Assembly: GCA_017407835.1 (NCBI GenBank)
Contig: JAFQVV010000027.1
Coordinates: forward strand, 3,414-67,413
Reading direction: 5' to 3'
Length of the DNA: 64,000 bases
DNA from: Clostridia bacterium
GTDB lineage: Bacteria; Bacillota; Clostridia; Oscillospirales; CAG-272
In this document: positions 1,727 to 48,196 of the stretch, piece after piece
Layout: each line of letters begins with the position of its first letter
Position numbering within the stretch: the stretch's first letter is position 1
The notes under the pieces: generated by a model
Told to the model about the DNA's origin: nothing
Seen by the model: only the letters and a program-made list of their open reading frames with translations
The model's database searches: none
Made by a program: the position numbers and the translations under genes

Positions 1727-2236
<510 letters not shown>

Positions 2237-30603: not shown

Positions 30604-30628
30604 TTGAAAAATTAACCACAATAAAAAA

Positions 30629-30657: not shown

Positions 30658-30661
30658 GCGT

Positions 30662-30733
30662 TTGGGGCGCTGCCCCAAGCCCTGCCTAAGGGTTCTTTTT
30701 GAAAAAAGAACCCTTAGGAAACCCGAAAAACTT
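30662..30733. repeat. Structured intergenic repeat, type 1, copy B
   Basis: TTGGGGC-GCT-GCCCCAA, then the 34-nt palindrome CCTAAGGGTTCTTTTTGAAAAAAGAACCCTTAGG, then GAAAAACTT. Collinear with 14438-14507. Confidence 0.8.
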
Positions 30734-30776
30734 CCCACATATTGCCGATCGAAATGCGGCAGTTTTTTGAAGGGGG

Positions 30777-30811
30777 GCGGGGGAAACTTTTTTTCAAAAA
30801 AGTTCCCCCGC
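30777..30811. repeat. Structured intergenic repeat, type 2, second copy
   Basis: GCGGGGGAAACTTTTTTTCAAAAAAGTTCCCCCGC. It has the same GCGGGGGA...CCCCCGC ends and T-run/A-run core as 18762-18805. Confidence 0.7.
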
Positions 30812-30840
30812 ATATCCTGTCCCGTTGCCGCATATCCTGT
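30808..30840 (+). promoter_or_regulatory. Two direct copies of CCGCATATCCTGT spaced 20 bp start-to-start; possible sporulation-sigma-type promoter or operator
   Basis: Copies are at 30808-30820 and 30828-30840. ATA(30812-14)-16 nt-CATATCCT(30831-38) resembles the ATA/CATAcanT pattern I recall for sigma-E-type promoters. The gene start is 36 nt downstream. Confidence 0.35.
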
Positions 30841-30875
30841 ACCACAATACATCTGCCCGACGAAAGGAATATGCC

Positions 30876-32441
30876 ATGGAAAAACAAGCTGCCAACTTTA
30901 CGCTGTCGCCCCCCGCCGCTCTCTGCCCGACCACCTTGGTCGATCGCACCGCCGCCACCGAGCTGACCGCCGATTTTTCACTGCCCGACTACCTCCCCGA
31001 GATCAAACGTCTGCTCCGCGTCACCGCCACCCCACACACCGAGTCGCGCTACCTCTCCGCCAACGCCGCCGAGTTTGACGGCGCGGTGGATTTCCTTGTC
31101 TGCTACGCGGGCGGGGACGGCGGGATGTACTCGACACGGCTGGCGCGCGACTACTCGATCAGTATGCCCGTTGATCCCGATCTGGCGGCGCGGGGGATTG
31201 ATCCATTCCTCGATACCCGCGTGGAGTCGCTGACCAGCCGCGTCACAGCGCCCCGCAAACTCAACGTCCGCCTGCGCTTGCGCACCCGTATGCGCGCCTA
31301 CGGCGAGGAGGACCTCACCCCCACGGTGGAAGCCGCCCCCGCCCACCTCGAACAGCTGATCAAGCATACCCATACCATGCAAATCCTGCGCGCCGATGAT
31401 CAGCCCCTCGACCTCGCCGAGGATATCCCGCTTGCCGACGCCGAGGGTGAGACGCGCATTGTCAGCACCGAGGGCGCGGTTGCAATCACCGACGTCACGC
31501 CCGAGGATGGAGCGGTCATGTGCCGTGGTGAGCTGATCCTGACGCTGATCACCTGCGCCGAGCCGATGGGGGGGCAGGGCGAGAGCGAACGCCGCGTCTG
31601 CCGCATTCCCTTCACCCGCACCGTGCCGCTGGAGGGCGCGCGTGGAGACATGTCGGCGCGCGCATGGGGCATTTGCTGTGATCTTTCCGCCGCCGTTGAG
31701 GAGGATCGCATTCTCTGCGACGCGGCGATTCGCCTGACAGTGGAGGCGGCAGCCGAGCGTCCCCTTGCCACAGTTGCCGATCTCTACGCCCTTGACGGCG
31801 AGATCGAGAATGCCGCCTACCGCGAGATTGCGCCCGAATCTCTGCTCTGCTGTGGCAACTACGCGGTGCCGATGACAGCCACCAATCCCGTGGCATCTCT
31901 GGGGATTGATCCCGCCGCGCGCATCGAGGACGTGAGCGCGGTGCCCCAGCCGGATGAGATCACTTGGGCGCATGGGCGCGCAGCTCTCTCTGGCAGCTGC
32001 CGCGTGACTTTGGTCTATGCGCTGGGCGGCGAATACAGCACGGCTGAGGTGGTAATCCCGTGGAAAAAGGAGATTGAGTGCGCGGCAGAGCCGACCGCGC
32101 GTGAGCTTGAGATGACCGTCACCCGCGCGTTGGCACGGATCGACGGGGAAGGGGAGCGCGCAGTTGTGACGATCGACGCCGAGCTTTGTGCCGCTCTCCG
32201 CCTGGGGCGCGCCGAGCGGAGGAGAATCCTCTCGCATGCCGCCTATTCTCCGCGCGACGGGAAGAAGGGCGGCGCTGTTACCGTCTGCTATCCAGAATCC
32301 GATGAATCTCTGTGGTCGATCGCTCGCCGTTATCACGTCAGTACGAGCGCGCTCGCCGAGGCTAATGACCTGCGTGTCGATGAAAATTGCGACACACCCG
32401 CGTCGCTGGGCGGCTTGCGCTATTTGCTGATTTCGCACTGA
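30876..32441 (+). CDS. SPOCS (DUF3794) repeat + C-terminal LysM protein, SpoVID/SipL-like
   Basis: LPDYLPEIKRLLRV-type SPOCS signature, with two further similar segments. C-terminal LysM (ESLWSIARRYHVSTSALAEANDL). The ATG at 30876 follows GAAAGGAA. Confidence 0.7.
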   Translation: MEKQAANFTLSPPAALCPTTLVDRTAATELTADFSLPDYLPEIKRLLRVTATPHTESRYLSANAAEFDGAVDFLVCYAGGDGGMYSTRLARDYSISMPVDPDLAARGIDPFLDTRVESLTSRVTAPRKLNVRLRLRTRMRAYGEEDLTPTVEAAPAHLEQLIKHTHTMQILRADDQPLDLAEDIPLADAEGETRIVSTEGAVAITDVTPEDGAVMCRGELILTLITCAEPMGGQGESERRVCRIPFTRTVPLEGARGDMSARAWGICCDLSAAVEEDRILCDAAIRLTVEAAAERPLATVADLYALDGEIENAAYREIAPESLLCCGNYAVPMTATNPVASLGIDPAARIEDVSAVPQPDEITWAHGRAALSGSCRVTLVYALGGEYSTAEVVIPWKKEIECAAEPTARELEMTVTRALARIDGEGERAVVTIDAELCAALRLGRAERRRILSHAAYSPRDGKKGGAVTVCYPESDESLWSIARRYHVSTSALAEANDLRVDENCDTPASLGGLRYLLISH

Positions 32442-33799: not shown

Positions 33800-34768
33800 T
33801 TAGTTTTGCATACCCAGCAGAGCGGCACCGATGATGCCTGCGTCGTTGCCGAGCTTGGCGATGCGAAATTCGGTCTGGGGCACAACGCCACCGCCGTATT
33901 GCTGTTTCTGAATCAAGGGAAGAAGCGGGTTAAGCAGGTTGTCACGCTCGTTCGAGATGCCGCCGCCGATGGAGATGACTTCGGGCTGGAAGATGTTGAC
34001 AATATTGATCAGCCCGCAGGCGAGATAATCGATATAGGTGTCAACCACCTCACGGCCGGCCTCGTCTCCTGCGCGCATGGCGTTGAAGGCGGTTCGCCCG
34101 GAGACAGGGGCGTTTGCTGCCATTTCGATCATGACGCTCTTGCGCCCGGTTTTGATGCATTCCTCAATTTTGTCGCGTGTGAGGTTGATCAGGCCTGTTG
34201 CCGAGCTGTAAGCTTCCCAGCAGCCCTTGCGTCCGCAGGAGCAGGGGCGTCCGTTGTGTTCGATGACGATATGGCCCAGCTCACCGCCCGCGGCGTTGAA
34301 GCCCGAGTATACGCGATTGTCGATGATGATACCACCGCCGACGCCGGTACCGAGGGTGATCATGACCGAGTTTTTCGTACCCTGTGCGGCACCTGCAACA
34401 GCCTCGCCCCAGGCAGCAGCGTTGGCATCATTGTCCAGACAGATGTTCCGGATGCCGGTATGCTTGGCGAGCATGGCGCAGATGGGGGTTTTGTGAAAGG
34501 GGAGATTGTTTGCATACATAACCATTCCTGTTTTTCCGTCTGCAATACCAGGGGAAGCGATACCTGCAGAACGGATATCGGCAGGAGTGAGATGGTTTGC
34601 TTTCAGCAGATCCAAGCAAAGATCGCCCATATCAGCGATGATAGCTTCGGCAGAGCGGCTTGCATTGGTGGGAACACTTTTTTTGGCTAACAGACGGTAG
34701 CTGTCATCGACAAGACCGGCGGCAATGTTGGTTCCGCCCAGGTCGATGCCAAGATAATAGGCAGACAT
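33800..34768 (-). CDS. glcK: ROK-family glucokinase
   Basis: YYLGIDLGGTNIAAGLV N-terminus, ROK zinc motif CSCGRKGCWE, and no N-terminal HTH. Confidence 0.9.
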   Translation of the reverse strand: MSAYYLGIDLGGTNIAAGLVDDSYRLLAKKSVPTNASRSAEAIIADMGDLCLDLLKANHLTPADIRSAGIASPGIADGKTGMVMYANNLPFHKTPICAMLAKHTGIRNICLDNDANAAAWGEAVAGAAQGTKNSVMITLGTGVGGGIIIDNRVYSGFNAAGGELGHIVIEHNGRPCSCGRKGCWEAYSSATGLINLTRDKIEECIKTGRKSVMIEMAANAPVSGRTAFNAMRAGDEAGREVVDTYIDYLACGLINIVNIFQPEVISIGGGISNERDNLLNPLLPLIQKQQYGGGVVPQTEFRIAKLGNDAGIIGAALLGMQN

Positions 34769-34842: not shown

Positions 34843-35408
34843 GGTGTTTGGAGAAATACGTAGGGGTGCTTTGAGATAAATCTTGTGCAGAATGGGGAAC
34901 TTGTGTTTGGGATTTGCGATGGTTTTTCAAATGAAAATTCATTATGGGAAAAATAGGTTTAACTGTAAAAAATCTACATATGTTGCGTGTCCATGTCGAA
35001 ATAACCGCAGTTTTTCGGAGAATTTTTTCAAAAAAAGTGCAATTTGTCTATTTTGTATAGGTGTAGAATTTTTAGTCTCAAATTTGTGCAAATTGACCAT
35101 GCTTCTCAAGATTACACAAAGACTTAGACGCAGAAGAAGGCAAATTGGAAGGGTAAATAGAATTAACATCTTTATTTTGTATGGTTGCAAAGTGGAGAAA
35201 TATGCGAGAAAAACTCCGAAAACATGCCAATTCACAAGGGGATGTTTGCAAAATAACGTAAATGATATTTACTAATCAAAAAAAGCGTTGATCCCTCCTC
35301 TTTTTGCTGAAAATATGACGACTTTTTCTTCTCCGTTTGAACGTGAAAAAGAGCAAAATTATGGGTAAATGAAGCTGAAGTGACAGAAGTGTGTATATAT
35401 TGCCGCCC

Positions 35409-35437
35409 TTGACAATTTTGGAGGGCTGTGCTATTAT
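35409..35437 (+). promoter_or_regulatory. Promoter TTGACA-17-TATTAT for the ABC cassette, followed by a leader of about 480 nt
   Basis: Read directly. It is the only strong promoter-like element I found between 34843 and 35916 on the plus strand. Confidence 0.6.
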
Positions 35438-35915
35438 ATTTGTATGAAAAATTAGGGTATTTTGCGATGTCTTGTTTGTGTCGCGTCGTAAACCCCTGGT
35501 TTTTCTTTCTGTGGAAAGGGAAAAATGGGCCTTTTCCCAGACAAATTGCATACCAATAATGCTGTGCGCTTTGGCATCTCAGGGCGTATAGGTAATGTTA
35601 TTGCGTGCTCGCTTTTCGCTTAAATATGGCCTCCGGTGAATCTGCGTCTCGGGTGGTCGGCGGCGAGGACGCAACAAATAACACGGCTTATTCTTTCATA
35701 TAAATAGTATGCGCAGGACAGTGCCACTGCATTGTTGAGCGGAGCTATTGAACAGAAAGGTGGAAATGCCCGGTTCTCGGTTTCCGCGCGAAAGAATAAA
35801 CTTGGACATGGTGCGGAAAACCGCAGGGCATTGTTGATGGCAAGTTTTTGTCCCCCATTCGCAGCTTATCGCCTGCGGTGAGTTTGCGGAAAAATCTTGG
35901 TAGGAGGAAAAGTGA

Positions 35916-38882
35916 ATGATGAAAGCGAAATTCAGAAAATTAACAGCTCTTCTTCTGGCTATTCTTACGGTCTTGGGCAGTTCGGTTCTCGGTGTCAGCG
36001 CAGTTGACGGTGAGACTTCGGTTACTGACCAGACGATTGATGAAGTCAGAGAGCTGCTTAATGCGATTTCGTATGCGGAGTACTTGGAAGCAAACGCAGA
36101 TGTTCCGAGAGCTTCAAAGAATATCGTGATCAATGCGGTTGATTACGATAAAGAAAATACGGATGCCGAGGTGTCTGAGAAGACATGGGACGGCCAGACA
36201 GGATTGCATTTGCCGAGTTCGGGCACTGTATCCTGGAAGGTTAATATCCCTTCTACGGCAAAGTACAGTATCGTGCTTGAGTATTATCCCGATGAAGGAA
36301 AGGTAGCCTCCATTGAGCGTATCTTTATGATCAATGGTAAGGTTCCGTTTAAGGAAGCTCGATATCTGACCATGACCAAAGTGTGGGTAAATGAATATGA
36401 AGAGCCCGATGAAGAAGGACGTCTCTTCGTTGCGGATATCGACGGAAATGAGCTTCGTCCGACGATGAATCAGATGCCTGAATGGAGAACATATGAGCTC
36501 CACGATGCAGATGGCTTCTATACCGAGTCGTTTGAGTTTGTGCTCGAAGAGGGGGAGAATATCCTCTCGCTGGAGGCAGTCAACGAGCCAATGACGGTTA
36601 AGTCCATCTCGCTGGTTGTTCATGAGGATTTGACGCCTTATGCTGAAATTCAGGCTGAGTATGAAGCCAAGGGCTATCAGCCCGCATCTTCTGACAGTGT
36701 TGTTACATTGCAGGCAGAGCATCCTACCGCGACGTCGTCGCAGACGATCTATCCCATCGAGGATAGAACTTCTGCCATCACGGTTCCGCAGGATGCTTCA
36801 CGCAGTCTGCTGAATACCATCGGCGGTGATAAGTGGCAGAACGCAGGTCAGTGGATTCGCTATGAGTTTGAAGTGCCCGAGAGCGGTCTGTATCAGATCG
36901 TCCCTCGTTTCAAGCAGGATCTGCTTGACGGTATGTTTGTCTCGCGTACCCTTCGTATCAACGGAGAAATTCCGTTTAAAGAAGCAACTGAGCTTCGCTT
37001 CAATTATTCGACCGAATGGCAGGTTGAGCCGCTCAATGACGGCGAGACTGCATTTGAGTTCTATTTTGAGGCAGGCAAAACCTATACCATCGAATTTGAG
37101 GTTGCCCTTGGTGAGATGGGCGAGGTTATCCGCGATATCGATGCTTCTCTTGCAAGCATTAACGCTGACTATCTTGAAATTCTGAAGCTGACGGGTGCTA
37201 CGCCTGACGAATACCGTGACTACGGTTTCTCGCGTATCATGCCCGATACGATCATCGACCTGATCATTCAGTCGAGAACCATTGAGGGCGTTTCGGAAAT
37301 GCTTACCGAGTTGGCGGGAACCAAGGGTTCCAACACCGCAACACTGGATAAGGTTGCGTTCCTGCTTGACCGTATGGGCGGCAATGAAGATGAGGTCGCA
37401 AAGAATCTTGAACAGTTGAAATCTTATATCGGTTCGCTGGGTACTTGGGTTGGCGATATGAAGTCACAGCCCCTGCGTCTCGATTACATCGTTATTCAGC
37501 CCGCAGAAAATGAACTGCCTAAGGCAGAAGCCGGTTTCTTTGCTGCATTTGGCTTTGAGGTACAGTCCTTCATTCAGTCCTTCTTCCGTAACTATAACCG
37601 TATGGGCGCAATTACCGATACGACTAACGATGCGGATGCGGTTGAAGTATGGTTGGCTTACGGTCGTGACCAGACACAGGTTATCCGTAACCTGATCAAT
37701 AACGATTTCACTCCCAAGACGGGGATATCCGTTAACCTGAAGCTGGTTGCAGGCGGTACGCTGCTTCCCTCGGTTTTGGCCAACATGGGTCCTGATGTTT
37801 ACATCGGTCTCGGCCAGAGTGATGTTATCAACTATGCAATCCGAAGCGCAATCAAACCCATCGAAGGCTTTGAAGATTTTGAGGAAACGCTGGTCGACTT
37901 CAATGATGCAGCAATGCTGCCTCTGGGTATTGAAGATGCCGAAGGCGTCTTCCATTACTACGGTCTGCCCGAGACGCAAAGCTTCCCGATGATGTTCTAT
38001 CGCAAGGACATTCTTGCTGAGCTTGGCATCGATATTCCGAAGACCTGGGATGATATTCTTGCCGCGGTTCCTGTATTGCAGGCAAACAATATGACCATCG
38101 GTCTTTCCAAGGACTATAAGATGTTCCTGTATCAGATGGGCGGCGAACTCTTTGCCGATAACGGCATGCGCATCAATCTTGATTCGAATGTTGCACTTGA
38201 ATCCTTTGAGATGATGTGTAATATGTTTACCATGTATTCCTTCCCCTATAAGTATGACTTTGCAAACCGCTTCCGTACCGGTGAGATGCCGATCGGTATC
38301 GCTGCTTATAACGGTACATATAACCAGCTGATCGTCTTTGCAACAGAAATCCGCGGTCTGTGGGAATTTGTTCCGCTGCCCGGTATTATGGATGAAGACG
38401 GCAACATCAATAACGTTTCGGTTTCCACGGTTTCTGCTATCGTTATGATGGCCGGCTGTGAGAACGAAGAGGCTGCTTGGGAATTTATGAAGTGGCATGT
38501 CGATGAACAGTGCCAGACAGACTACTCCAATGAAATGGTTGCAATCCTTGGTCCTTCGGCTAAGCATGCAACGGCAAATGAGACGGCGCTGAAGTCGCTG
38601 CCTTGGACTACCGCCGAATTGGAAAATCTGGAGCTGCAGTTCAATAACCTTGCCTCCATCCCGAACTATCCCGGCTCTTACATTTTGGATCGTTATACCA
38701 ACTTCGCGTTCCTGGCTGCTTACAACAGCAAAGCAGACCCCGTGGAGCAGCTGTTGAGCTACATCCCGACGATCAATAAGGAGATCACACGTAAGAGAAG
38801 CGAGTTCGGTCTGCCGACCCTTGAGCTTGGTCAGACGTTGGCCGATCTTCAGGCAGAGCAGCAAGGCACTCCTGCTGAATAA
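35916..38882 (+). CDS. Giant extracellular solute-binding protein: signal peptide, two CBM-like beta-sandwich modules, helical linker, family-1 sugar SBP domain
   Basis: 988 aa. Internal duplication (GTVSWKVNIPSTAKYSIVLEYYPDEG...INGKVPFKEA versus GQWIRYEFEVPESGLYQIVPRFKQD...INGEIPFKEA). The C-terminal 430 aa or so look like a sugar-ABC binding protein. AGGAGG RBS. Confidence 0.8.
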   Translation: MMKAKFRKLTALLLAILTVLGSSVLGVSAVDGETSVTDQTIDEVRELLNAISYAEYLEANADVPRASKNIVINAVDYDKENTDAEVSEKTWDGQTGLHLPSSGTVSWKVNIPSTAKYSIVLEYYPDEGKVASIERIFMINGKVPFKEARYLTMTKVWVNEYEEPDEEGRLFVADIDGNELRPTMNQMPEWRTYELHDADGFYTESFEFVLEEGENILSLEAVNEPMTVKSISLVVHEDLTPYAEIQAEYEAKGYQPASSDSVVTLQAEHPTATSSQTIYPIEDRTSAITVPQDASRSLLNTIGGDKWQNAGQWIRYEFEVPESGLYQIVPRFKQDLLDGMFVSRTLRINGEIPFKEATELRFNYSTEWQVEPLNDGETAFEFYFEAGKTYTIEFEVALGEMGEVIRDIDASLASINADYLEILKLTGATPDEYRDYGFSRIMPDTIIDLIIQSRTIEGVSEMLTELAGTKGSNTATLDKVAFLLDRMGGNEDEVAKNLEQLKSYIGSLGTWVGDMKSQPLRLDYIVIQPAENELPKAEAGFFAAFGFEVQSFIQSFFRNYNRMGAITDTTNDADAVEVWLAYGRDQTQVIRNLINNDFTPKTGISVNLKLVAGGTLLPSVLANMGPDVYIGLGQSDVINYAIRSAIKPIEGFEDFEETLVDFNDAAMLPLGIEDAEGVFHYYGLPETQSFPMMFYRKDILAELGIDIPKTWDDILAAVPVLQANNMTIGLSKDYKMFLYQMGGELFADNGMRINLDSNVALESFEMMCNMFTMYSFPYKYDFANRFRTGEMPIGIAAYNGTYNQLIVFATEIRGLWEFVPLPGIMDEDGNINNVSVSTVSAIVMMAGCENEEAAWEFMKWHVDEQCQTDYSNEMVAILGPSAKHATANETALKSLPWTTAELENLELQFNNLASIPNYPGSYILDRYTNFAFLAAYNSKADPVEQLLSYIPTINKEITRKRSEFGLPTLELGQTLADLQAEQQGTPAE

Positions 38883-38935
38883 ACTGTTCGATTCGATCAT
38901 TTAATAAAGAAATCTGAAATAAGGAGAGAGCGCAA

Positions 38936-39883
38936 ATGTCACAAAAAACGGCAGCACCGAAAGCGGTTTCCCGCAAGGACATGACACGTGCGCAGTGGAC
39001 GTGGAAGGAGATTAAGCGCAATAAAGTTGCATACTTTATGGTCGCACCTTATGTCATCCTCTTTACCATCTTTACTGTTGTTCCCGTTGTCTTCTCAATG
39101 TTCTTGAGTCTGACCGAATTTAACCTCCTCGAGCCTCCGAGATTCCTGTTCTTGGATAACTACATCCGTCTGTTTCTGGATGATGACATTTTCATTTTGG
39201 CTTGCCAGAATACCTTCATTTTCGCCGTTATCGTCGGTCCGGCATCTTACTTGATGTCGCTGATGGTTGCATGGTTTATCAACGAGCTGTCCCCCAAGAT
39301 CCGCGCAGTTGTTACGCTGATCTTCTACGCACCGTCTATCTCGGGTCAGGTTTACCTGATTTGGGGTACCCTTTTCTCGGGTGACGCTTACGGTTGGGTC
39401 AACGGTACTCTGCTTAAGCTCGGTTTGATTACCCAGGAGATCCAGTTCTTCGAGTCGGCAAAGTGGGTTATGCCCCTTTGTATCGTCGTTGCCCTCTGGA
39501 CCTCGCTTGGTACCTCCTTCCTGTCCTTCATCGCCGGTCTTCAGGGTATCGACCGCTCGATGTACGAGGCAGGTGCGGTTGACGGTATCCGCAACCGTTG
39601 GCAAGAGCTTTGGTATGTCACCCTCCCCTCCATGAAGCCCCAGCTGATGTTCGGTGCAATCATGTCGATTACCAGTACCTTCGGTTTCGGCGGCGTTGTT
39701 ACCGCACTCTGCGGATTTCCCTCGGTTGACTACGCAGCACATACCATTATGCACTGTCTGGAAGACTACGGCAGCCAGCGTTTCGAGGTTGGTTATGCGT
39801 CGGCCATCGCGGTCGTACTCTTCGCCATCATGATTGGTGCAAATATGCTGGTCAAGAAAATACTCTCAAAGGTGGGACAATAA
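38936..39883 (+). CDS. Sugar ABC transporter permease (MalF/UgpA-type), pair 1
   Basis: Six TM helices. EAA loop MYEAGAVDGIRNRWQELWYVTLPSMKP. Confidence 0.9.
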   Translation: MSQKTAAPKAVSRKDMTRAQWTWKEIKRNKVAYFMVAPYVILFTIFTVVPVVFSMFLSLTEFNLLEPPRFLFLDNYIRLFLDDDIFILACQNTFIFAVIVGPASYLMSLMVAWFINELSPKIRAVVTLIFYAPSISGQVYLIWGTLFSGDAYGWVNGTLLKLGLITQEIQFFESAKWVMPLCIVVALWTSLGTSFLSFIAGLQGIDRSMYEAGAVDGIRNRWQELWYVTLPSMKPQLMFGAIMSITSTFGFGGVVTALCGFPSVDYAAHTIMHCLEDYGSQRFEVGYASAIAVVLFAIMIGANMLVKKILSKVGQ

Positions 39884-39884
39884 T

Positions 39885-40757
39885 ATGGCAAAACTGAGAA
39901 CAAGAAAACATAAAGTTGTCCTGAACCGCTCGGCCGGCGGTGATGCAGGTATCGTATTCCTGCTCGTTATCCTGGGTGCATTCATGTTCCTGCCGATGCT
40001 TTATGTCATCATGCAGTCGCTGAAGCCTCTGGATGAGCTGTGGATGTTCCCCCCTCGCTTCTATGTGGTTAAGCCCACCTTCAAGAACTTCAAAGATTTG
40101 TTCACTCTGATGAATGACTCTTGGGTTCCGTTCTCCCGCTACATCTTCAATACCGTGTTCATTTCGGTAGTCGGTACCGCAGGTCACCTGTTCTTCGCTT
40201 CTCTGGCTGCATACGCTTTTGCGAAGATCAAGTTCCCCGGCGGAAAGCTGATGTTCACCACCATCCGTACCTCGCTGATGTTCCACGCCACCGTTACTTC
40301 GCTGGTTAACTTCATCGTTATGTCCTGGTTTGGTTGGATTGATACTTATGCGGCTGTGATTATCCCCGGCTTTGCATCAACGCTTGGCCTTTACCTGATG
40401 AAGCAGTTCATGGACACCAACGTATCGGGTGCGGTGCTTGAGTCCTCCCGACTCGACGGTGCAAGTGAGCTGAAGACCTTCTGGGTTATTGCAATGCCGA
40501 TGGTTAAGCCTGCCTGGCTCACCCTTATCATCTACCGTTTCAAGGATCTTTGGAACGAGGGTGCATCGATCTACATTCACTCGGAGCAGTTGAAAACCTT
40601 CAACTATGCAATCCAGCAGATTATGGCGGGCGGTATCAAGCGCGCAGGTGCAAGTGCTGCCTCTACCGTTGTTATGATGTTGGTTCCGATTCTCGTTTTC
40701 GTTATTTCGCAGTCGAACATTATCGAGACCATGGGCTCGAGCGGCATGAAGGATTAA
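39885..40757 (+). CDS. Sugar ABC transporter permease (MalG/UgpE-type), pair 1
   Basis: EAA loop LESSRLDGASELKTFWVIAMPMVKP. The ATG is 1 nt after the upstream stop. Confidence 0.9.
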   Translation: MAKLRTRKHKVVLNRSAGGDAGIVFLLVILGAFMFLPMLYVIMQSLKPLDELWMFPPRFYVVKPTFKNFKDLFTLMNDSWVPFSRYIFNTVFISVVGTAGHLFFASLAAYAFAKIKFPGGKLMFTTIRTSLMFHATVTSLVNFIVMSWFGWIDTYAAVIIPGFASTLGLYLMKQFMDTNVSGAVLESSRLDGASELKTFWVIAMPMVKPAWLTLIIYRFKDLWNEGASIYIHSEQLKTFNYAIQQIMAGGIKRAGASAASTVVMMLVPILVFVISQSNIIETMGSSGMKD

Positions 40758-40768
40758 GGAGGAAACCA

Positions 40769-42898
40769 ATGAAAAATATCATTCGAGTAATTGCATTGGT
40801 TTTCGCTGCAATGATGCTTTTCGCAGTGCCGATCAGTGCGGCTAAGCCCTACCAGACATACACCTATTCCATCGACGGTATGCCGCTGAATTCTCCTGAT
40901 GCATATACGCCTGTTATGACGGTTGACTCTGCATACATGGGACTTTCCAAGGCATTTGATGATCCGCGTGATCTCTTTGTTGACGATGAGAACAATGTTT
41001 ATCTTGTCGATGCAAAGAATAACCGCGTAATCGTTCTCGACCGCTACTATAAGCTGAAGTTTACTATCGGTGAGAAGACTTTCATCAACGACCAGGGTGT
41101 TCCGGATGAATTGACCGCGCCTTCCGGCGTGTTTGTCACCGAGGATATCATTTATGTTTGTGATACCGATGCAAACCGAATCGTAACTTTCGACCGTGAG
41201 GGTAATTTCATCAAGATTATTCCTCAGCCTGAATCGGAGCTCTTTTCCGAGGGAGCTGTCTACAAGCCCGTTGCGGTGGCGGTTGACCAGTACAATCGAC
41301 TTTACGTTGTTTCATCGACGACTTATCAGGGTATTATTGTTATGACCGATGAAGGCACGTTTACCGGTTTTATCGGTGCACAGAAGGTTGATGCCAATCC
41401 GCTGGAAATTCTGTGGAGACGCTTCCAGACCAAGGAGCAGCGTGAATTGACCGCGGAGATTATTCCGACCGAGTTTAACAATATTACCATCAACGACGAG
41501 GGTTTCATTTATGTAACCACTTCGTCGATTGATTCCAGCAAACAGCAGTCCGCAATCACATCCAAGAGTGGTGACTATGCGCCTGTTAAGATGCTGAACG
41601 CGTCCGGTGCTGAGATCATGCGTCGTAACGGCTTCTTCGCTCCTTCGGGTGAAGTACAGGTTTCGAACAGCGTGACTTCGGATATTACCGGTGCATCTAA
41701 GATTATAGATGTTGCTGTCGGTCCCGAGGGGACTTGGTCTATTATCGATGAAAAGCGCCAGAAGATCTTTACCTACGACTTTGATGGTAATCTTCTCTTT
41801 GCATTCGGAGATAAAGGTCAGCAGCTTGGCAACCTTTCCTCTATCGAGGCGGTTGTTTATCAGGGAAGTACCATGCTTGTGCTGGACAAGACAGCAGATA
41901 ACATTACCGTCTTCAAGCGCACCGAGTACGGCGATATCCTTATCCGAGCTCTGGAGCACCAGAACAACCGTCAGTATGAGTTGGCTGTCGATGACTGGAC
42001 GGAGATTCTGAAGAGAAACTCCAACTTCGATACCGCTTATATCGGCATCGGCCAGGCACTCTATCGCAATGCGGAATATGAGGAAGCCATTGAATATTAT
42101 AAGTCTGCATACGATACTGCCAACTATTCCAATGCGTATAAAGAATTGCGCAAGGCATGGATTGAGAAATATGTTCTGCTGATTCCTGTGATTGCAATCG
42201 TGTTGATTGTGGCCTTCGTGCTCTTCTTCCGTTATGCAGCGAAAGTGAATCTGCGTACCGCGACCAAGGGCGGCAAGCGTACACTTAAGGAGGAGCTGCT
42301 CTTCGGCTTCCACCTGATGCTGCATCCGTTTGACGGTTTCTGGGATTTGAAGCACGAAAAACGCGGTTCTGTACGCGCATCTGTTATTTATCTGGTGGTT
42401 GTCATTTTGACATTCTTCTATCAGGCAATCGGTACAGGCTATGTGATGAACCCCCGCGGTACATACACCACAGTTTTCTCGCAGGCGATCGCAGTATTGG
42501 TCCCCCTCTTCCTGTGGGTGACTGCAAACTGGTGCTTGACTACGCTGTTTGACGGCGAGGGCAGCTTTAAGGATATCTTCATCGCAACTTCCTATTCCCT
42601 TGTTCCCCTGCCGCTGCTGATTATCCCTGCTACGATTGCTTCCAACTTCGTCACCACGAGCGAAACCGCGATGATCAACTTGCTCTCGAGCTTCTCCTTC
42701 ATTTGGGCAATTCTGTTGATCTTCTTCGGTATGATGGTAACGCACGATTACACGCTGACCAAGAACCTGGTTATCTCACTGTGTACGGTTGTGGGTATGG
42801 TCTTCATTATGTTCGTGGGTATCCTGTTCACGACGCTGTTGGGTAAGATCGTCAGCTTTATTTCGAATATCGTTATCGAAATTAACTACCGACTATAA
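40769..42898 (+). CDS. Signal peptide + six-bladed NHL-repeat beta-propeller + TPR + C-terminal Yip1-family 5-TM domain
   Basis: Six NHL-like blades (for example NNVYLVDAKNNRVIVLD, IIYVCDTDANRIVTFDREGNF, NRLYVVSS, GFIYVTTS). TPR (AYIGIGQALYRNAEYEEAIEYYKSAYD). Then TM helices with a Yip1-like LMLHPFDGFWDLKHEKRGS segment. AAGGAGG RBS. Confidence 0.75.
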   Translation: MKNIIRVIALVFAAMMLFAVPISAAKPYQTYTYSIDGMPLNSPDAYTPVMTVDSAYMGLSKAFDDPRDLFVDDENNVYLVDAKNNRVIVLDRYYKLKFTIGEKTFINDQGVPDELTAPSGVFVTEDIIYVCDTDANRIVTFDREGNFIKIIPQPESELFSEGAVYKPVAVAVDQYNRLYVVSSTTYQGIIVMTDEGTFTGFIGAQKVDANPLEILWRRFQTKEQRELTAEIIPTEFNNITINDEGFIYVTTSSIDSSKQQSAITSKSGDYAPVKMLNASGAEIMRRNGFFAPSGEVQVSNSVTSDITGASKIIDVAVGPEGTWSIIDEKRQKIFTYDFDGNLLFAFGDKGQQLGNLSSIEAVVYQGSTMLVLDKTADNITVFKRTEYGDILIRALEHQNNRQYELAVDDWTEILKRNSNFDTAYIGIGQALYRNAEYEEAIEYYKSAYDTANYSNAYKELRKAWIEKYVLLIPVIAIVLIVAFVLFFRYAAKVNLRTATKGGKRTLKEELLFGFHLMLHPFDGFWDLKHEKRGSVRASVIYLVVVILTFFYQAIGTGYVMNPRGTYTTVFSQAIAVLVPLFLWVTANWCLTTLFDGEGSFKDIFIATSYSLVPLPLLIIPATIASNFVTTSETAMINLLSSFSFIWAILLIFFGMMVTHDYTLTKNLVISLCTVVGMVFIMFVGILFTTLLGKIVSFISNIVIEINYRL

Positions 42899-42921
42899 CG
42901 GACAGATAGGAGAAAGATTTA

Positions 42922-45900
42922 ATGAAAAAATTTAGAATTATATCGGCCCTCTTAGCTGCGTTGATGTTGGTCGGTTCTCTTACGGTTTTTGAAGTAAGTG
43001 CAGTCACCATGGTTGACGAGGATACTTATCTCGGCAAAAATGGTGTTGAGCATGAAGTTATCAATTACACTACACAGAAACATGCAACCGACGAAGAAAA
43101 GCTGAAGACGATGGATGTAATGGTAGAAAATCTTTACGGCTACCGACTTTACGCCGATTATTATTCAGGTGAAGTTGCATGTACCAATCTGGCATCCGGC
43201 CAGACGATTTTTACCAATCCTTACAACATTGGTGATTCCAACGGCTCCGCTTCTATCAAACAGCAGCTGATGTCACAGGTTATTATCAAATATACCGATA
43301 ATGACCAGGAAAAATATTTCTACAGTTATGAAGAAGCCGCTCTTCGCGGACAGATCAATGTAGAAAGCATTAAAAACGGTGTGCGCGTTGAGTACACCAT
43401 CGGTCGTGAGGAAACTCGTATGCTGGTTCCTCGTATGATCAAAAAGGAGCGTCTGGAAAACGAAATTCTCGCCTACATCGATAATGAGTGGGCGTATGAT
43501 AAGGTTAAAGCGTTCTACGATTTGCTTGATCCTTCTAAGGAGGAAACCGAAAAGGCGGCAACCGAGCTGCAGAGTAAATTCCCCATCACCAAAAAGATGG
43601 CAGTTTACATTTTCGATGTCAGTGCCTCCATGGGTGAGCTGAGAACCGTTGAGGAATACATCAAAGAGTACTGCCCGCTCTTCACTTACGAAGTGCTTGA
43701 TGATGTACATGCACAGGTTGAGTATGAAGGTGCCGACCGCGCTCCCGCACTCTTCCGTCTGGCTATCGAGTATACCCTCGATGAGGACGGTCTGATGATT
43801 CGTGTTCCTTTCAATGGTCTGCGTTTCGATGAATCCGAGTATAAGCTGACGGATGTACAGATTCTTCCTTACCTGGGAGCAGGTGCAAGCCCGAATACCG
43901 GTTATACTTTCCTGCCTGATGGTTCGGGTACGACAATCAAATTTGAGGATATCGCCAAAGTTTCCTCAACTACCCTGACCAGTAAGCTTTATGGCTTGGA
44001 TTATGCTTATCACAATATTTCAGGTGCGCATTTTGAGCAGATGACTCTGCCGATTTACGGCTTGGTCGAGAATGTTGAGAAAACCATCTCCAAGCAGGTT
44101 GACAACATCGTTGAAACAGTAGATCCCGAGACCGGCGAGACAATTCAGACGGTGGACGGAACAAAGACGGTTCGTGAGGAATATAAGGAAGACCGAGGCT
44201 TTGCCGTTCTCATTGAAGAAGGCGAAGCATTGGCGGAGATTTCCTCTATCCACGGCGGATCACTGCATATGTACCATTCGGTTACCACGCGAATCGTTCC
44301 TCGCCCGAAAGATTCGTATAACCTCCGTGATGCAATTTCGGTTGGTTCCAATGCAACTTGGACGGTTGTTTCCGAGCGTAAGTATGTTGGTAACTTGAAG
44401 CTTCGTGTCTTTATGCTGACCGATCAGACGATCGCAGAAGAGAAGGGGCTGGAAGATACCTATGAACCTACCCATTACGGTATCCTTGCTGCTGTTCGTG
44501 ACTATTGGTTTAAGACGGGTGTACTCACTCGCTTGACCGAAGAAGATGTAAAAGAAGATATCCCGCTTTACATCGAATCGTTCGGCGCACTGGAGACGCT
44601 GGAAAAGGTCTTGTCCGTTCCTGTCTGGGTAATGACTCCCCTGACCACCTTTGACAATATCAAGACGATGTATGATGAACTCTCGGCTGAGGGTATTACC
44701 AACATCAACTTCCGTTTGACCGGTTTTGCCAACGGCGGTTTGTACAGTGAAATTCCCTCTGATCTGAAGTGGGAAAAAGTGGTTGGTGGCAGCGAAGGCT
44801 TTGAAGATCTTGTCGCGTATGCGAAGGAAAAAGATTTCGGCATTTTCCCCGACTTTGATTTCTCGTATTCCGATTACAACACACTCTTCGACTCGCTCAA
44901 TCTCAAGAAGCATGCAGTCAAGACCATCAACAATCAGTATACCTCTAAGCGCTACTACAGTGCGACCTACCAGTCCTTTGAGTCGTACGGCGAGCTGGCA
45001 ATCTCCCCTGCATATTTCGATTATTTCTATACCAAGCTGAATGCAAAATATCAGGAATACAATCCCGTTGGTATTTCGGTATCCACATTGGCATCCGATT
45101 TGAATTCAGACTTTGATGAGGATGAGCCTTACAACCGTGAGGATAACAAGGAATTTACGGTTGATCTTCTCAAGAAGCTTGACGAGGACTATGATCAGGT
45201 TATGTCGGATGTCGGTAATGCTTATGCACTGCCTTATGTTGACCACCTGCTTAATGTTCCTCTGGATTCCAGCCGTTTCCTGAAGGCCAGCAATTCAATT
45301 CCGGCAACGGGTATTCTGCTCCATGGCTCGATTAGCTTTGCCGGTACGCCGATCAATATGGCGGGCGATATTGCCTACGATTTCCTGAAAGCAATTGAAA
45401 ACGGTGCAAGCCTCTACTTTACGCTTTCTTATCAGAATACCGATGAACTCAAGGAAGATTTCCAGTTCAGTAAGTATTATTCGATTCGTTATGACATTTG
45501 GTTTGATGAAGTGGTTGAACGCTACAACGAACTCAATGCAATTACCAAGGATTTGCAAACTAAGCTGATCGTTGGTCATGAGTTCCTGATCGGTGAGCGT
45601 GTACCCGATGCGGACGAAATTGAAGCAGATAAGCAGGCGGTTCTCGACGCCGAAGCAGCACAAAAGGCCAAGGAAGAGGAAGCTGCCCGTAAAGCTGCAC
45701 TGGAAGAAGAGCGCGCAAAGCGTAAGGCCGAGGAAAACGGTGAGGAGTATATTCCTCCTGTTTCTGAGGAGGTTCCGGAAGAGAATACCGATTCTACCGA
45801 GTCTGTGAAACCCGAAGGCTATGTCTACACCAAGTACACCTCTGATGATGGCAGCATCGTTAAGGTAACGTACGAGGGTGGCATCATCTTCTACCTCAAC

Positions 45901-45981
45901 TATAACAACTTTGCCGTCACGATTGAAGATAACGGTCAGACCTATACGCTGTCTGCGTACGGCTATGTTAGAGTAAACTAA
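42922..45981 (+). CDS. Large secreted or anchored protein of unknown function (recalled as DUF5696-like)
   Basis: 1019 aa. N-terminal signal/anchor MKKFRIISALLAALMLVGSLTVFEVSA. No catalytic motif recognised by eye. Charged E/K/A-rich segment near nt 45605-45820. The family assignment is from memory of similar gene neighbourhoods and has not been verified. Confidence 0.6.
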   Translation: MKKFRIISALLAALMLVGSLTVFEVSAVTMVDEDTYLGKNGVEHEVINYTTQKHATDEEKLKTMDVMVENLYGYRLYADYYSGEVACTNLASGQTIFTNPYNIGDSNGSASIKQQLMSQVIIKYTDNDQEKYFYSYEEAALRGQINVESIKNGVRVEYTIGREETRMLVPRMIKKERLENEILAYIDNEWAYDKVKAFYDLLDPSKEETEKAATELQSKFPITKKMAVYIFDVSASMGELRTVEEYIKEYCPLFTYEVLDDVHAQVEYEGADRAPALFRLAIEYTLDEDGLMIRVPFNGLRFDESEYKLTDVQILPYLGAGASPNTGYTFLPDGSGTTIKFEDIAKVSSTTLTSKLYGLDYAYHNISGAHFEQMTLPIYGLVENVEKTISKQVDNIVETVDPETGETIQTVDGTKTVREEYKEDRGFAVLIEEGEALAEISSIHGGSLHMYHSVTTRIVPRPKDSYNLRDAISVGSNATWTVVSERKYVGNLKLRVFMLTDQTIAEEKGLEDTYEPTHYGILAAVRDYWFKTGVLTRLTEEDVKEDIPLYIESFGALETLEKVLSVPVWVMTPLTTFDNIKTMYDELSAEGITNINFRLTGFANGGLYSEIPSDLKWEKVVGGSEGFEDLVAYAKEKDFGIFPDFDFSYSDYNTLFDSLNLKKHAVKTINNQYTSKRYYSATYQSFESYGELAISPAYFDYFYTKLNAKYQEYNPVGISVSTLASDLNSDFDEDEPYNREDNKEFTVDLLKKLDEDYDQVMSDVGNAYALPYVDHLLNVPLDSSRFLKASNSIPATGILLHGSISFAGTPINMAGDIAYDFLKAIENGASLYFTLSYQNTDELKEDFQFSKYYSIRYDIWFDEVVERYNELNAITKDLQTKLIVGHEFLIGERVPDADEIEADKQAVLDAEAAQKAKEEEAARKAALEEERAKRKAEENGEEYIPPVSEEVPEENTDSTESVKPEGYVYTKYTSDDGSIVKVTYEGGIIFYLNYNNFAVTIEDNGQTYTLSAYGYVRVN

Positions 45982-45998
45982 GAAAGAGAGGTGTGCAT

Positions 45999-46964
45999 AT
46001 GACGAATACAAAACCCGCGGTTAAGTCCGCAAAGAAAAAAAAGCGTTACGCTTCTCTTGATAAGCGCAAGGCGCGTGCGGGGTGGTTCTTTGTCCTCCCG
46101 TTCGTACTTAGCTTCCTCATCATTTATGTGCCCATCATTTTTGAGTCCATCCGTCTCAGCTTTTTCCGCATTAAGCCGGTTATCGGCGGCGGATTTGAGT
46201 TGATTCCTGTTGGCTTCCAAAACTACCAAGAGGCACTTTTCGTCGATCCTGACTTTGCTCAAACGCTTCTGACCGGTCTGCAGCAGCTCGCGTTTGACAT
46301 TCCCGCAATCGTTATTTTCTCGCTGTTTATGGCAGTGCTGCTGAACCAGAAGATGGTTGGTCGTGCGGCTTTTCGTGCAATCTTCTTTATCCCGGTTATT
46401 CTGTCCACCGGTTTGATCGAATCGATTGATGCACAAAACACCATGACCGAGTATATGGATTCGGCAAGCGGTATCAACGACGGTTCGGGTGAGAGTGTTG
46501 CCTCAGACCTTGTATCGGCCATTGATGTCGAACGGCTCTTCGCCAACATGAAGGTCGGTAAAGACCTTGTTAAATATGTTGCGGATATGATTAACAATAT
46601 TTATAATATTGTTAATCGCTCCGGCGTACAGATGCTGATCTTCCTCGCCGGTTTGCAGTCTATTTCTGCCGCGATCTATGAGTCCTGCCAGATTGACGGC
46701 GCAAGCGCATGGGAAACCTTCTGGAAGATTACCTTCCCGATGATCAGCCCCATGATCCTGGTAAACGGCATTTATACCATCATCGACTCCTTCACCTCTG
46801 AATCAAATCAGGTTATGACGTTCATTGCAAAGGTATATACCCAGACAGACGGTAATGTGCTGTCCTCGGCAATGTCGTGGATGTACTTCCTGATTGTCAT
46901 GCTGATTATTGCAGCGGTCGCAGGTGTCATGTCGGCATATGTCTTCTACCAGAGAAGGGATTAA
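45999..46964 (+). CDS. Sugar ABC transporter permease (MalF-type), pair 2, with an extra loop of about 70 aa
   Basis: EAA loop YESCQIDGASAWETFWKITFPMISP. Insertion STGLIESIDAQNTMTEYMDSASG...NIVNRSG lies before the EAA-bearing helices. The ATG at 45999 is 7 nt after GAGAGG; the GTG at 45993 is an alternative. Confidence 0.85.
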   Translation: MTNTKPAVKSAKKKKRYASLDKRKARAGWFFVLPFVLSFLIIYVPIIFESIRLSFFRIKPVIGGGFELIPVGFQNYQEALFVDPDFAQTLLTGLQQLAFDIPAIVIFSLFMAVLLNQKMVGRAAFRAIFFIPVILSTGLIESIDAQNTMTEYMDSASGINDGSGESVASDLVSAIDVERLFANMKVGKDLVKYVADMINNIYNIVNRSGVQMLIFLAGLQSISAAIYESCQIDGASAWETFWKITFPMISPMILVNGIYTIIDSFTSESNQVMTFIAKVYTQTDGNVLSSAMSWMYFLIVMLIIAAVAGVMSAYVFYQRRD

Positions 46965-46976
46965 GGAGGGGAAAAA

Positions 46977-48035
46977 ATGGACGCACAAAATATGCAAAAA
47001 GCCCCCACGGTAATGAAGGAATCCAAGAACAAAATCAGAGTTGAGTTTGAGAGAACTCCGCTCAAGGAAAGATTGAAAGCGAAATTTATTTCGACCTTCT
47101 TCCTGCAGAAGTTTGTCTGGTTTATCTTCCGTCTTGTTCTTCTGATCGGTATTTCTTATGTTATCCTGTTCCCGTTCTTCTCGAAGATTTCCGGTTCCTT
47201 CATGGCACCGGAGGACTTCGTTGATGTTACGGTCCGCCTGATTCCGAAGCATTTTACTCTGGATACCTACAAGGCTATTGTCAATGATCTTGGATATTGG
47301 GATGCATTTATCAACACATTCCTTCTTTCCCTGTCCACAGCTCTGATCCAGACCTTCGTCTGCTGCCTGATTGCTTACGGTCTTGCAAAGTTTAAGTTCA
47401 AGGGCAATGGCATCGTATTCCTTGCTGTTATCCTGACGATGATTGTTCCTCACGAAACGCTTCGTCTCTCGCTGTTTATGGAGTTCCGCTATTTCGATAT
47501 CCTCGGCATCTTCAAGCTGCTTGGCGGTGGTGTAATCGAGTCGCTGAATGTTCTGCCTTTCACCGACATCAACCTCACCAATACCTTCTGGCCCTTGATT
47601 GTTCTGTCGATCGGTGGTCTGGGCTTCAAGAACGGTCTGTATATCTTTATGCTTCGTCAGTTCTTCCGCGGTGTGCCGGATGAGCTGGAGGAGTCGGCTT
47701 ACATCGACGGTTCGGGTACGCTTCGTACATTTATCCAGATTATTCTCCCGCTTTCCATTCCGATGATGATCACGGTGTTCCTCTTTGCCTTCTCTTGGCA
47801 GTGGACCGACGACTTCTACACCACGCTGTTCTTTACCACGCAGAAGACGACGTTGATGCCCGACATTATCAGCATTCCGAAATCCCTGCAAACCAACTAC
47901 GCAGGTCAGAACTTGTATTACTCGGCAATCCGTAATACTTGCGGTCTGATGATCATCTTCCCGTTGATCATTATGTACCTCTTCGGCCAGCGCTATCTCA
48001 TTCAGGGTATCGAGCGCTCGGGTATCACCGGCTAA
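46977..48035 (+). CDS. Sugar ABC transporter permease (MalG-type), pair 2, with an N-terminal extension of about 45 aa
   Basis: EAA loop EESAYIDGSGTLRTFIQIILPLSIP. Lys-rich N-terminal cytoplasmic extension. Confidence 0.85.
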   Translation: MDAQNMQKAPTVMKESKNKIRVEFERTPLKERLKAKFISTFFLQKFVWFIFRLVLLIGISYVILFPFFSKISGSFMAPEDFVDVTVRLIPKHFTLDTYKAIVNDLGYWDAFINTFLLSLSTALIQTFVCCLIAYGLAKFKFKGNGIVFLAVILTMIVPHETLRLSLFMEFRYFDILGIFKLLGGGVIESLNVLPFTDINLTNTFWPLIVLSIGGLGFKNGLYIFMLRQFFRGVPDELEESAYIDGSGTLRTFIQIILPLSIPMMITVFLFAFSWQWTDDFYTTLFFTTQKTTLMPDIISIPKSLQTNYAGQNLYYSAIRNTCGLMIIFPLIIMYLFGQRYLIQGIERSGITG

Positions 48036-48069
48036 TCGAAACTTGTCGCAGGATTTATTCTGCACCCCG

Positions 48070-48101
48070 ACAGGGCGGACTTTGGTCCGCCCTGTTTTTT
48101 T
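48070..48101 (+). terminator. Rho-independent terminator of the ABC cassette (ACAGGGCGGAC-TTTG-GTCCGCCCTGT + T7)
   Basis: Read directly, 35 nt after the last permease stop. Confidence 0.88.
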
Positions 48102-48144
48102 ACATTGGCAGCTAATCTCCTTGGTAATGGGGTGGGCTTGGATG

Positions 48145-48196
48145 CAAATAGAAAAAGGGCCTCGAAACATTCATTTCGAGGCTCTTTTTCTATTTG
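48145..48196 (-). terminator. Long hairpin terminator after alaS (about 22-bp stem with one bulge, A/T runs on both sides)
   Basis: CAAATAGAAAAAGGGCCTCGAAA / TTTCGAGGCTCTTTTTCTATTTG. Confidence 0.8.

Follow-up and report, generated by a model that had tools for sequence, protein, structure and literature searches.

We report that a 64,000-nucleotide stretch of DNA from a Clostridia bacterium (contig JAFQVV010000027.1, positions 3,414 to 67,413; hereafter the window, with coordinates counted from its first nucleotide) carries a module of seven genes, G1 to G7, the order of which recurs in distant Firmicutes of gut and soil. Specifically, the module encodes a giant extracellular substrate-binding protein (SBP), two pairs of MalF/MalG-like permeases, a membrane protein with NHL, TPR and Yip1 domains and a protein of the DUF5696 family. 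What we observed is the structure of the genes, the domains and folds assigned to their products, the synteny and genomic contexts of the module and the co-variation of protein lengths, and on these grounds we consider it reasonably probable that the operon is a conserved generic core for capturing glycans at the cell surface and importing them by ATP-binding cassette (ABC) transport, with the ATPase encoded at a distance.

Gene order and genomic contexts of the module

The seven genes lie on the plus strand between 35916 and 48035, bounded by a promoter and a terminator, and were defined in an open reading frame (ORF) listing of the window as follows (AF2, AlphaFold2).

35916..38882, + strand: G1, extracellular binding protein, 988 aa (Pfam, AF2 model, Foldseek, profile search)
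38936..39883, + strand: G2, MalF/UgpA-like permease of pair 1, 315 aa (BPD_transp_1, UgpA-like matches, EAA-type loop EAGAVDG...LP)
39885..40757, + strand: G3, MalG/UgpE-like permease of pair 1, 290 aa (BPD_transp_1, UgpE/MalG matches, EAA loop ESSRLDGAS)
40769..42898, + strand: G4, membrane protein, 709 aa (Pfam, PDB NHL/TPR matches, hydropathy profile)
42922..45981, + strand: G5, DUF5696 protein, 1019 aa (Pfam DUF5696 E 1e-122, AF2 model, Foldseek)
45999..46964, + strand: G6, MalF-like permease of pair 2, 321 aa (BPD_transp_1 4.8e-10, EAA-type loop YESCQIDGAS)
46977..48035, + strand: G7, MalG-like permease of pair 2, 352 aa (BPD_transp_1 2.7e-11, UgpE/MalG, canonical EAA motif at 239)

From G1 to G7 the intergenic gaps are 53, 1, 11, 23, 17 and 12 nt, and a GGAGG-like Shine-Dalgarno sequence precedes each of the seven ATG starts. 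For a public contig of identical sequence an independent gene caller gave the same product lengths (988/315/290/709/1019/321/352 aa). An earlier note on this DNA had described seven same-strand genes with these gaps, a promoter at 35409 and a terminator; the genes and gaps were reproduced by the ORF listing, and its domain assignments (SBP, four BPD_transp_1 proteins, NHL/TPR/Yip1 and DUF5696) were reproduced by Pfam. Long minus-strand ORFs antisense to the cassette (e.g. 37464-38900, 41312-42745 and 46803-48170) were rejected as mechanical; the independent gene calls omit them.

A scan of one genome per species gave 490 genomes with a relative of G5, and the best 80 loci were compared with the seven window proteins using tblastn. 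All of these 80 derive from Clostridia metagenome-assembled genomes labelled Oscillospiraceae, 'Flemingiibacterium', Eubacteriales and similar. The order SBP, MalF/MalG pair, NHL/Yip1, DUF5696, MalF/MalG pair is complete in 62 of them; the other 18 end at contig edges and their remaining genes keep the order. The departure from the textbook importer layout remarked on in the earlier note is thus a conserved unit, kept in 62 of the 62 related loci that are sufficiently long. No gene insertions within the module were found in the related loci compared, and differences in module size between clade loci derive from the stalk of the DUF5696 protein.

More distant loci were found by tblastn against annotated plasmids, followed by look-up of distant DUF5696 proteins. 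The layout was recovered in ten distant loci with gene tables and in one frameshifted long-read contig, L090. The ten loci are listed here with their genes (HK, histidine kinase; RR, response regulator; GH, glycoside hydrolase; core, the seven-gene module).

L083, Butyrivibrio fibrisolvens: HK/RR, GH43, core, two SBPs
L084, Paenibacillus cellulosilyticus: ugpC/msmX-type ATPase, 37 nt upstream of the giant SBP
L085, Paenibacillus aceti: SBP, core, SBP, HK/RR
L086, Acetatifactor: HK, GH43, core, two SBPs
L087, Roseburia: LacI, GH53, core, SBP, GH53
L088, metagenome contig: GH43, core, SBP, GH35, LacI, GH42
L089, Gorillibacterium: LacI, unannotated 456-aa lipoprotein, core, GH26, GDSL esterase, GH2 mannosidase
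L091, metagenome contig: HK, GH43, core, two SBPs
L092, metagenome contig: GH9, LacI, SBP, core, GH113
L093, metagenome contig: AraC, core, GH16, SBP, GH3

In the nine loci L083-L091 (Lachnospiraceae, Paenibacillaceae and metagenomes) tblastn gave one-to-one orthologues of all seven proteins in the same order, with identities of 30-40% over nearly the whole length for the giant SBP, 35-60% for permease pair 1, 25-43% for pair 2, 27-44% for NHL/Yip1 and 22-27% for DUF5696. Start and stop codons overlap at many junctions in the distant loci. A neighbourhood of DUF5696, YIP1, a large SBP and permeases, as mentioned in the earlier note, does exist in Butyrivibrio, Roseburia, Acetatifactor, Paenibacillus and Gorillibacterium. 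In L090 (3191-7896) the giant SBP and the first permease are split into many short ORFs and the rest of the module is intact; assembly frameshift errors are a more likely cause of these breaks than decay of the copy.

Of the ten distant loci, at least seven have one or two extra conventional SBP genes adjoining the module, and in an eighth an unannotated lipoprotein occupies the same position. The description of four permeases sharing one SBP is modified by this, and the second permease pair may normally have an SBP partner of its own. In L086, L087 and L089 the extra SBPs and the large GH43 and GH53 proteins carry lipoprotein signal peptides, and a small GH53 (346 aa) and GH26 (349 aa) are without a signal, a pattern that would fit extracellular endo-cleavage followed by intracellular breakdown of oligosaccharides after their import. 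In other Firmicutes the neighbouring genes place the core within loci that serve galactan, arabinogalactan, mannan and beta-glucan. Since the same core is found beside different GH families (GH43, GH53, GH26/GH2, GH113 or GH16/GH3) it looks generic, and the earlier idea that it is dedicated to one polymer was not upheld.

Domains and predicted folds of the seven proteins

G1 consists of two CBM35-like beta-sandwiches (residues ~60-235 and 260-397; CBM, carbohydrate-binding module), a helical bundle (401-516) and a CUT1-type SBP domain (520-988). Its Pfam matches, SBP_bac_1 (3e-21) and SBP_bac_8 (4e-20), are confined to residues 589-887 in the C-terminal 40% of the protein. The SBP domain matched maltodextrin-, sophoro- and cycloisomalto-oligosaccharide-binding proteins among PDB sequences, and Foldseek with the G1 model gave CUT1 oligosaccharide-binding proteins (E about 1e-10); G1 has the SBP_bac_1-class component that characterises a CUT1 / type I ABC carbohydrate importer. 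The Foldseek result for whole G1 is dominated by the binding domain, and the N-terminal modules were therefore assessed by profile search. The second module matches the CBM35 of cycloisomaltooligosaccharide glucanotransferase (CITase; 5x7g, E 2e-4) and the first matches CBM35 weakly (CsxA 2vzp, E 0.35; 2w47, E 0.8); Pfam gave no domain on the isolated N-terminal modules. The AF2 model has a pLDDT of 69 overall, with the N-terminal half at high confidence. G1 has a signal peptide and lacks the lipobox Cys, and the clade consensus is alike.

All four permeases match BPD_transp_1, G2 with a score just under the curated cut-off, and the combination of a MalF-like and a MalG-like permease with EAA loops that marks CUT1 importers is present twice (Pfam, NCBIfam). 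Identity to orthologues in distant Firmicutes is 43-58% for G2 and 35-60% for G3. G6 contains a hydrophilic stretch of ~70 aa and its similarity to G2 is local only (~34%). Recent duplication of a permease pair was ruled out, as the two pairs share only ~22-35% local identity; the arrangement is therefore ancient.

Neither an LSGGQ signature nor an ABC-type Walker A motif was found in any frame of the window, and no ATPase gene except the unrelated SufC lies beside the module in the 80 related loci. In P. cellulosilyticus, the ugpC/msmX-type ATPase gene listed above directly precedes the orthologous giant SBP. As read from sequence, the transporter parts have the defining features of a CUT1 type I importer, apart from the ATPase, which was searched for in the 64-kb window. 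The earlier note had proposed a machine for capture and for uptake or export. The capture and uptake part gains from the CBM35-like modules fused to a CUT1 domain, the EAA loops and the adjacent MsmX/UgpC-type ATPase of P. cellulosilyticus; the export alternative is without support and was rejected, all four permeases being of the importer type.

G4 comprises a signal peptide, an extracellular NHL beta-propeller, TPR repeats, one transmembrane helix and a C-terminal multi-pass Yip1 domain (Pfam: Yip1 8e-14 at residues 515-683, plus NHL, TPR and SGL). A single gene encodes both NHL and Yip1 in the window's clade and in two Paenibacillus loci, and two overlapping genes do so in most other distant loci, including those of Lachnospiraceae; from the fusion in some lineages we argue that both parts work together.

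G5 begins with an N-terminal signal/anchor and a beta-sandwich. Next come a (beta/alpha)8 barrel, a stalk made of one long helix (897-938) and an acidic linker, and the C-terminus is a small beta domain (973-1018) that is conserved. An AF2 model built from 40 homologues (pLDDT 81, pTM 0.76) has the overall fold of GH129 and GH101, i.e., a beta-sandwich plus a (beta/alpha)8 barrel. The top Foldseek matches were the GH129 members ZgGH129 (5opq, E 9e-27) and NagBb (5wzr, E 5e-20), with target-normalised TM-scores of 0.69-0.72, followed by GH101 endo-alpha-GalNAc-ases at about 1e-13 (5a58, E 4e-13) and then GH36 and GH31. The DUF5696 profile aligned the NagBb barrel sensibly but below threshold when run against PDB (E 0.53). 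A single-sequence search of PDB with G5 gave no meaningful relative and NCBIfam no model, Foldseek of DUF5696 against viral structures was uninformative, and Pfam on the isolated C-terminal domain gave nothing useful.

DUF5696 is a large family, for which a full profile search gave 6,859 clusters (50% identity) at E <= 1e-3 and 4,063 at E <= 1e-30. Among 18 members, 23-28% identical to G5, many polar residues are invariant or near-invariant, among them D333, D360, E432, R739, N766, N812 and D730, and D730, located after beta-4, is at least 90% conserved in DUF5696. Homologues of 1200-2000 aa owe their greater length to a helical stalk rich in Ala, Glu and Lys, and Pfam gave no domain on the long inserts of larger homologues.

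The length of the SBP follows that of the DUF5696 protein (Spearman 0.83, n=61 loci, uncorrected for phylogeny), and DUF5696 length rises monotonically with the class of C-terminal helical tail on the SBP (rho 0.76, n=45, likewise uncorrected).

SBP tail <= 35 aa: DUF5696 median about 1,015 aa
SBP tail 86-91 aa: DUF5696 median about 1,016 aa, range 968-1,530 (mixed class)
SBP tail 98-106 aa: DUF5696 median about 1,250 aa
SBP tail 125-127 aa: DUF5696 median about 1,445 aa
SBP tail 148-186 aa: DUF5696 median about 2,000 aa

This length co-variation, the missing lipid anchor of G1 and the pattern of NHL-Yip1 fusion and splitting together suggest that the extracellular parts of the module act as one assembly.

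Transcription signals and neighbouring genes

The signals around the operon and the divergent gene upstream of it are as follows (HTH, helix-turn-helix).

35409..35437, + strand: sigma-A-type promoter, TTGACA-17-TATTAT with upstream TG (TG-n extended -10), 11/12 matches
35438..35915, + strand: structured 5' leader, ~478 nt between promoter and G1 start
35031..35110, + strand: upstream non-coding element p2, two ATTTGTGCA copies ~44 nt apart flanking an invariant TGTAGAA
48069..48104, + strand: intrinsic terminator, 12-bp stem (48069-48096) with 8 G-C pairs, 4-nt loop and T-run
33800..34768, - strand: divergent ROK-family gene, 322 aa (Pfam ROK 1e-65, no HTH domain)

Overall, the promoter scan was not above chance (23 sites vs 18.9 expected). 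Despite this, we accept the 35409 promoter as functional because it sits in a conserved patch, almost base-for-base identical in 10 orthologous loci whose proteins are only ~50% identical; the -35 box, the extended -10 box and then ATTTGTATGAAAAA are all kept in these loci. The leader has a minimum free energy of -172.7 kcal/mol (z = -5.4 vs shuffled sequence), and the promoter and leader region matched no Rfam family, the sole match being a chance snoRNA (E 0.65). Several leader blocks are 100% conserved in loci L001-L003. A second subclade of eight loci (L057, L062, L063, L068, L071, L073, L076 and L078) keeps the blocks and retains both segments of a predicted 20-bp long-range helix (AAUUGCAUAsCAAUAAUGCUG and GCAUkGUwUUrUUGGCAAG). 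In a covariation test over the two subclades the central part of the leader aligned too poorly for pairing to be scored. The leader may be a new cis-regulatory RNA candidate.

Moreover, p2, ~350 nt upstream of the promoter, was found in 11 other orthologous loci with proteins ~50% identical (blastn, nhmmer), at a constant distance from the promoter, and one ATTTGTGCA copy makes the palindrome AATTTGTGCAAATT. Given this conservation, p2 may be an operator or a second or alternative promoter. The G+C content of the cassette (35916-48035) is 47.9% vs 52.9% for the remaining window, a small difference, and since the synteny with alaS is conserved, horizontal transfer in recent times is unlikely.

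In the window the module is flanked by the divergent ROK gene without HTH domain, an rlmI-like methyltransferase gene and a convergent alaS, with a LysR gene past alaS. The ROK gene, the product of which is probably a sugar kinase, precedes the module in at least 10 related loci as well, and whether the two are linked is uncertain. It is preceded by a perfect 12/12 consensus promoter (34842-34814).

Other genes of the window include one for a 1579-aa SLH-domain protein followed by one for a SipL/LysM sporulation-type protein (25864-32441), which suggest an S-layer-bearing and spore-forming organism; this may bear on how long the stalks of the surface proteins are. Subunits of a V-type ATPase are encoded at 48-7480, and after them comes an MBOAT and DHHW/AlgX-like pair (8228-10966) that resembles a surface-polymer O-acylation system. 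On the minus strand, four tandem genes (53012-60495) have products of ~580 aa; the three that were scanned have a C-terminal metallo-beta-lactamase fold and an unannotated N-terminal half.

Mechanism, rival readings and known systems

We infer binding, catalysis, transport and assembly by the module from the data above. The operon would be transcribed as one mRNA of ~12.6 kb, from the 35409 promoter through the 478-nt leader to the terminator at 48069, and G1, G4 and G5, judged from their Sec signal sequences, would be exported and act outside the membrane. As fold and homology indicate, G1 would capture glycan with its CBM35-like modules, and its CUT1 domain would pass oligosaccharide to a permease dimer. 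G2/G3 and G6/G7 would form two ancient, distinct heterodimers of MalF/MalG type, both predicted to draw on one shared ATPase of MsmX/UgpC type, the gene of which would lie elsewhere in the genome; in other taxa the adjacent conventional lipoprotein SBPs probably use the second dimer as well. G5 would be membrane-tethered and, with a stalk-borne GH129/GH101-like barrel, hold or trim the glycan beside the transporter. More speculatively, G4 may unite the parts as a scaffold with the NHL propeller and TPR repeats outside and Yip1 within the membrane.

By analogy, all seven proteins might form a single surface supercomplex, a Firmicute counterpart of the SusCD 'utilisome' of Bacteroidota, which we regard as doubtful. 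A Yip1 hub with its NHL ectodomain would then couple the two permease dimers, the stalk-borne GH129-like enzyme and the CBM-bearing SBP, the helical tail of the SBP would be tethered to the G5 stalk, and capture, cleavage and import of long glycans would proceed in one machine that evolution has redeployed for many different polysaccharides.

Several observations weigh against a glycan-uptake core with an enzyme-like G5. The flanks in the window's clade are housekeeping genes (alaS, cysteine desulfurase-like, rlmI-like and ROK) with no adjacent carbohydrate-active enzyme (CAZyme), regulator or ATPase, a setting atypical for a nutrient locus. The SBP-domain part of G1 is modelled at low confidence (pLDDT 40-70), and shared ancestry inflates the G1/G5 length correlations. 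At E <= 10 none of the 18 diverse DUF5696 members matched a GH Pfam model, DUF5696 has Thr, Ser or Ala at the position that aligns with the Asp of the clan-D-like 'DGW' motif of NagBb, and the candidate acid/base residues D763 and D782 are not invariant. Moreover, the structural relatives of G5 cleave alpha-linkages and the partner enzymes elsewhere act on beta-glycans. Finally, we know of no earlier case of a type I importer that combines two permease dimers with a Yip1 partner.

As GH Pfam models are unmatched and the NagBb profile match is below threshold, we set DUF5696 outside GH129 and GH101: on its model it is a remote glycosidase-fold family, and probably a new one. The chances that G5 is catalytic appear evenly balanced. 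We do not think that it is a backbone-cleaving enzyme, because the core adjoins enzymes for at least four beta-glycans and the fold relatives cleave alpha-linkages. A possible reading, to which we give tentative credence, keeps the uptake core and makes the DUF5696 protein non-enzymatic, a surface glycan-binding or structural stalk that tethers G1 and presents glycan chains to the transporter, with cleavage left entirely to separate enzymes. A single catalytic specificity is hard to reconcile with an unchanged core beside GH43, GH53, GH26, GH113 and GH16, and the missing GH signature at the sequence level, the varying putative acid/base positions, the co-variation of stalk length with the SBP tail and the need of G1, without a lipobox Cys, for another tether all favour such a stalk; the near-invariant polar residues on the barrel and N-terminal domain, however, are typical of an active or ligand-binding site, and no alternative candidate enzyme is nearby in the window's clade.

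The housekeeping neighbourhood in the clade (alaS, rlmI-like and ROK kinase genes, and neither regulator nor CAZymes) would also suit an operon that serves the cell's own envelope, trimming and recycling a secondary cell-wall polymer, capsule or S-layer glycan with DUF5696 as an alpha-glycosidase and re-import of the fragments by the ABC systems. The alpha-glycosidases among the fold relatives of G5, stalk lengths that vary as though matched to envelope thickness and the 1579-aa SLH-domain surface protein in the window point the same way. Except in P. cellulosilyticus and L090, however, the distant loci are flanked by plant-glycan enzymes, extra SBPs and LacI, AraC or HK/RR regulators, and CBM35-like modules are typical of plant-glycan enzymes, which makes an envelope role improbable. 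That the operon merely joins two ordinary, independent sugar importers to two unrelated surface-protein genes, with no functional coupling, is very improbable: each pair alone does resemble a normal MalF/MalG pair and conventional SBP genes flank the module in other taxa, but all 62 complete loci share one gene order, which also spans two bacterial classes at 22-60% identity, the genes here are spaced by gaps of 1-23 nt and in other taxa have overlapping start and stop codons, some lineages fuse NHL and Yip1 where others split them, and the lengths of G1 and G5 co-vary.

Read as a generic uptake core, the module can be compared with several known systems. Some CUT1 importers of Firmicutes share an MsmX/MsmK ATPase, as in GanSPQ-MsmX and AraNPQ-MsmX of Bacillus subtilis, and MalEFGK2 of Escherichia coli is their structural model. 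Like these, the module has an SBP_bac_1-type domain, MalF- and MalG-like permeases with EAA loops and no ATPase gene in the operon; unlike them, it has two divergent permease pairs in one operon, an SBP more than twice the normal size with two CBM35-like modules, a helical bundle and no lipid-anchor Cys, and two large obligatory accessory surface/membrane proteins. B. subtilis YknWXYZ provides an ABC system accompanied by a Yip1-family protein, YknW, the YknYZ part of which is an exporter of the MacB type and comes with a membrane-fusion protein. The module likewise encodes a Yip1-domain membrane protein alongside ABC transporter genes, but its partners are importer permeases of the BPD_transp_1 type, its Yip1 is fused or adjacent to an NHL propeller, and no FtsX/MacB or HlyD-type gene was found in the operon (Pfam, NCBIfam).

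With respect to enzymes, G5 shares its overall architecture with GH129 (the alpha-N-acetylgalactosaminidase NagBb of Bifidobacterium and the 3,6-anhydro-D-galactosidase ZgGH129 of Zobellia) and GH101, but differs from them in ~10% sequence identity, unmatched GH Pfam models, catalytic residues that are not identifiable, an added helical stalk and C-terminal beta domain, and in being always encoded inside an ABC permease operon. By this fold it modifies one statement of the earlier note, that no recognisable glycoside hydrolase is present; the accompanying statements, that there is no ABC ATPase in the 64-kb window and no linked regulator, stand.

Gram-positive polysaccharide utilisation loci (gpPULs), known from Roseburia, Eubacterium and Butyrivibrio, are defined by a transporter together with a polysaccharide-degrading enzyme and a regulator. 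In Lachnospiraceae and Paenibacillaceae the module similarly sits among GH genes, extra SBPs and LacI, AraC or HK/RR regulators. In the window no linked regulator was found among the neighbours (ROK without HTH, rlmI-like and alaS), and G5, by fold alone, is the only candidate for a recognised CAZyme; the locus taken by itself, without regulator or classical CAZyme, thus falls outside the gpPUL definition, whereas its distant orthologues fall within it. A further difference is that the seven-gene core is undescribed in the searched literature and recurs beside different GH families. PULs of Bacteroidota, including 'utilisomes', are centred on SusC/SusD with a TonB-dependent outer-membrane transporter. 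The likeness is one of analogy and not homology, a generic capture and import core reused beside variable enzymes and regulators; the proteins of the module are unrelated and the importers are single-membrane ABC systems.

Our literature search found nothing on DUF5696, PF18952, this gene layout, or Yip1/NHL proteins in sugar-uptake loci, a match for GH53 being to an unrelated paper on a T-cell antigen, and the suspicion that the gene set might prove to be an already characterised system was not confirmed. Systems of this kind are known; what is new is an undescribed, deeply conserved seven-gene core in ABC-based Gram-positive glycan utilisation. The proposal is directly testable, since the module occurs in organisms that can be cultured (Butyrivibrio fibrisolvens D1, Paenibacillus aceti, P. 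cellulosilyticus and Gorillibacterium).

Firmicutes rank among the main degraders of fibre in the guts of humans and animals, and accounts of how they take up glycans usually speak of an ABC transporter and some enzymes. The present data suggest a fixed seven-gene core reused beside enzymes for galactan, arabinogalactan, mannan and beta-glucan. Two of its protein families, DUF5696 and bacterial NHL-Yip1, are not known to have been the subject of any study. If this core is a physical machine, it would represent a new organisational principle for Gram-positive polysaccharide utilisation and, if the reading is true, might add a possible new glycoside hydrolase family and offer a handle on predicting and engineering fibre use by butyrate producers.

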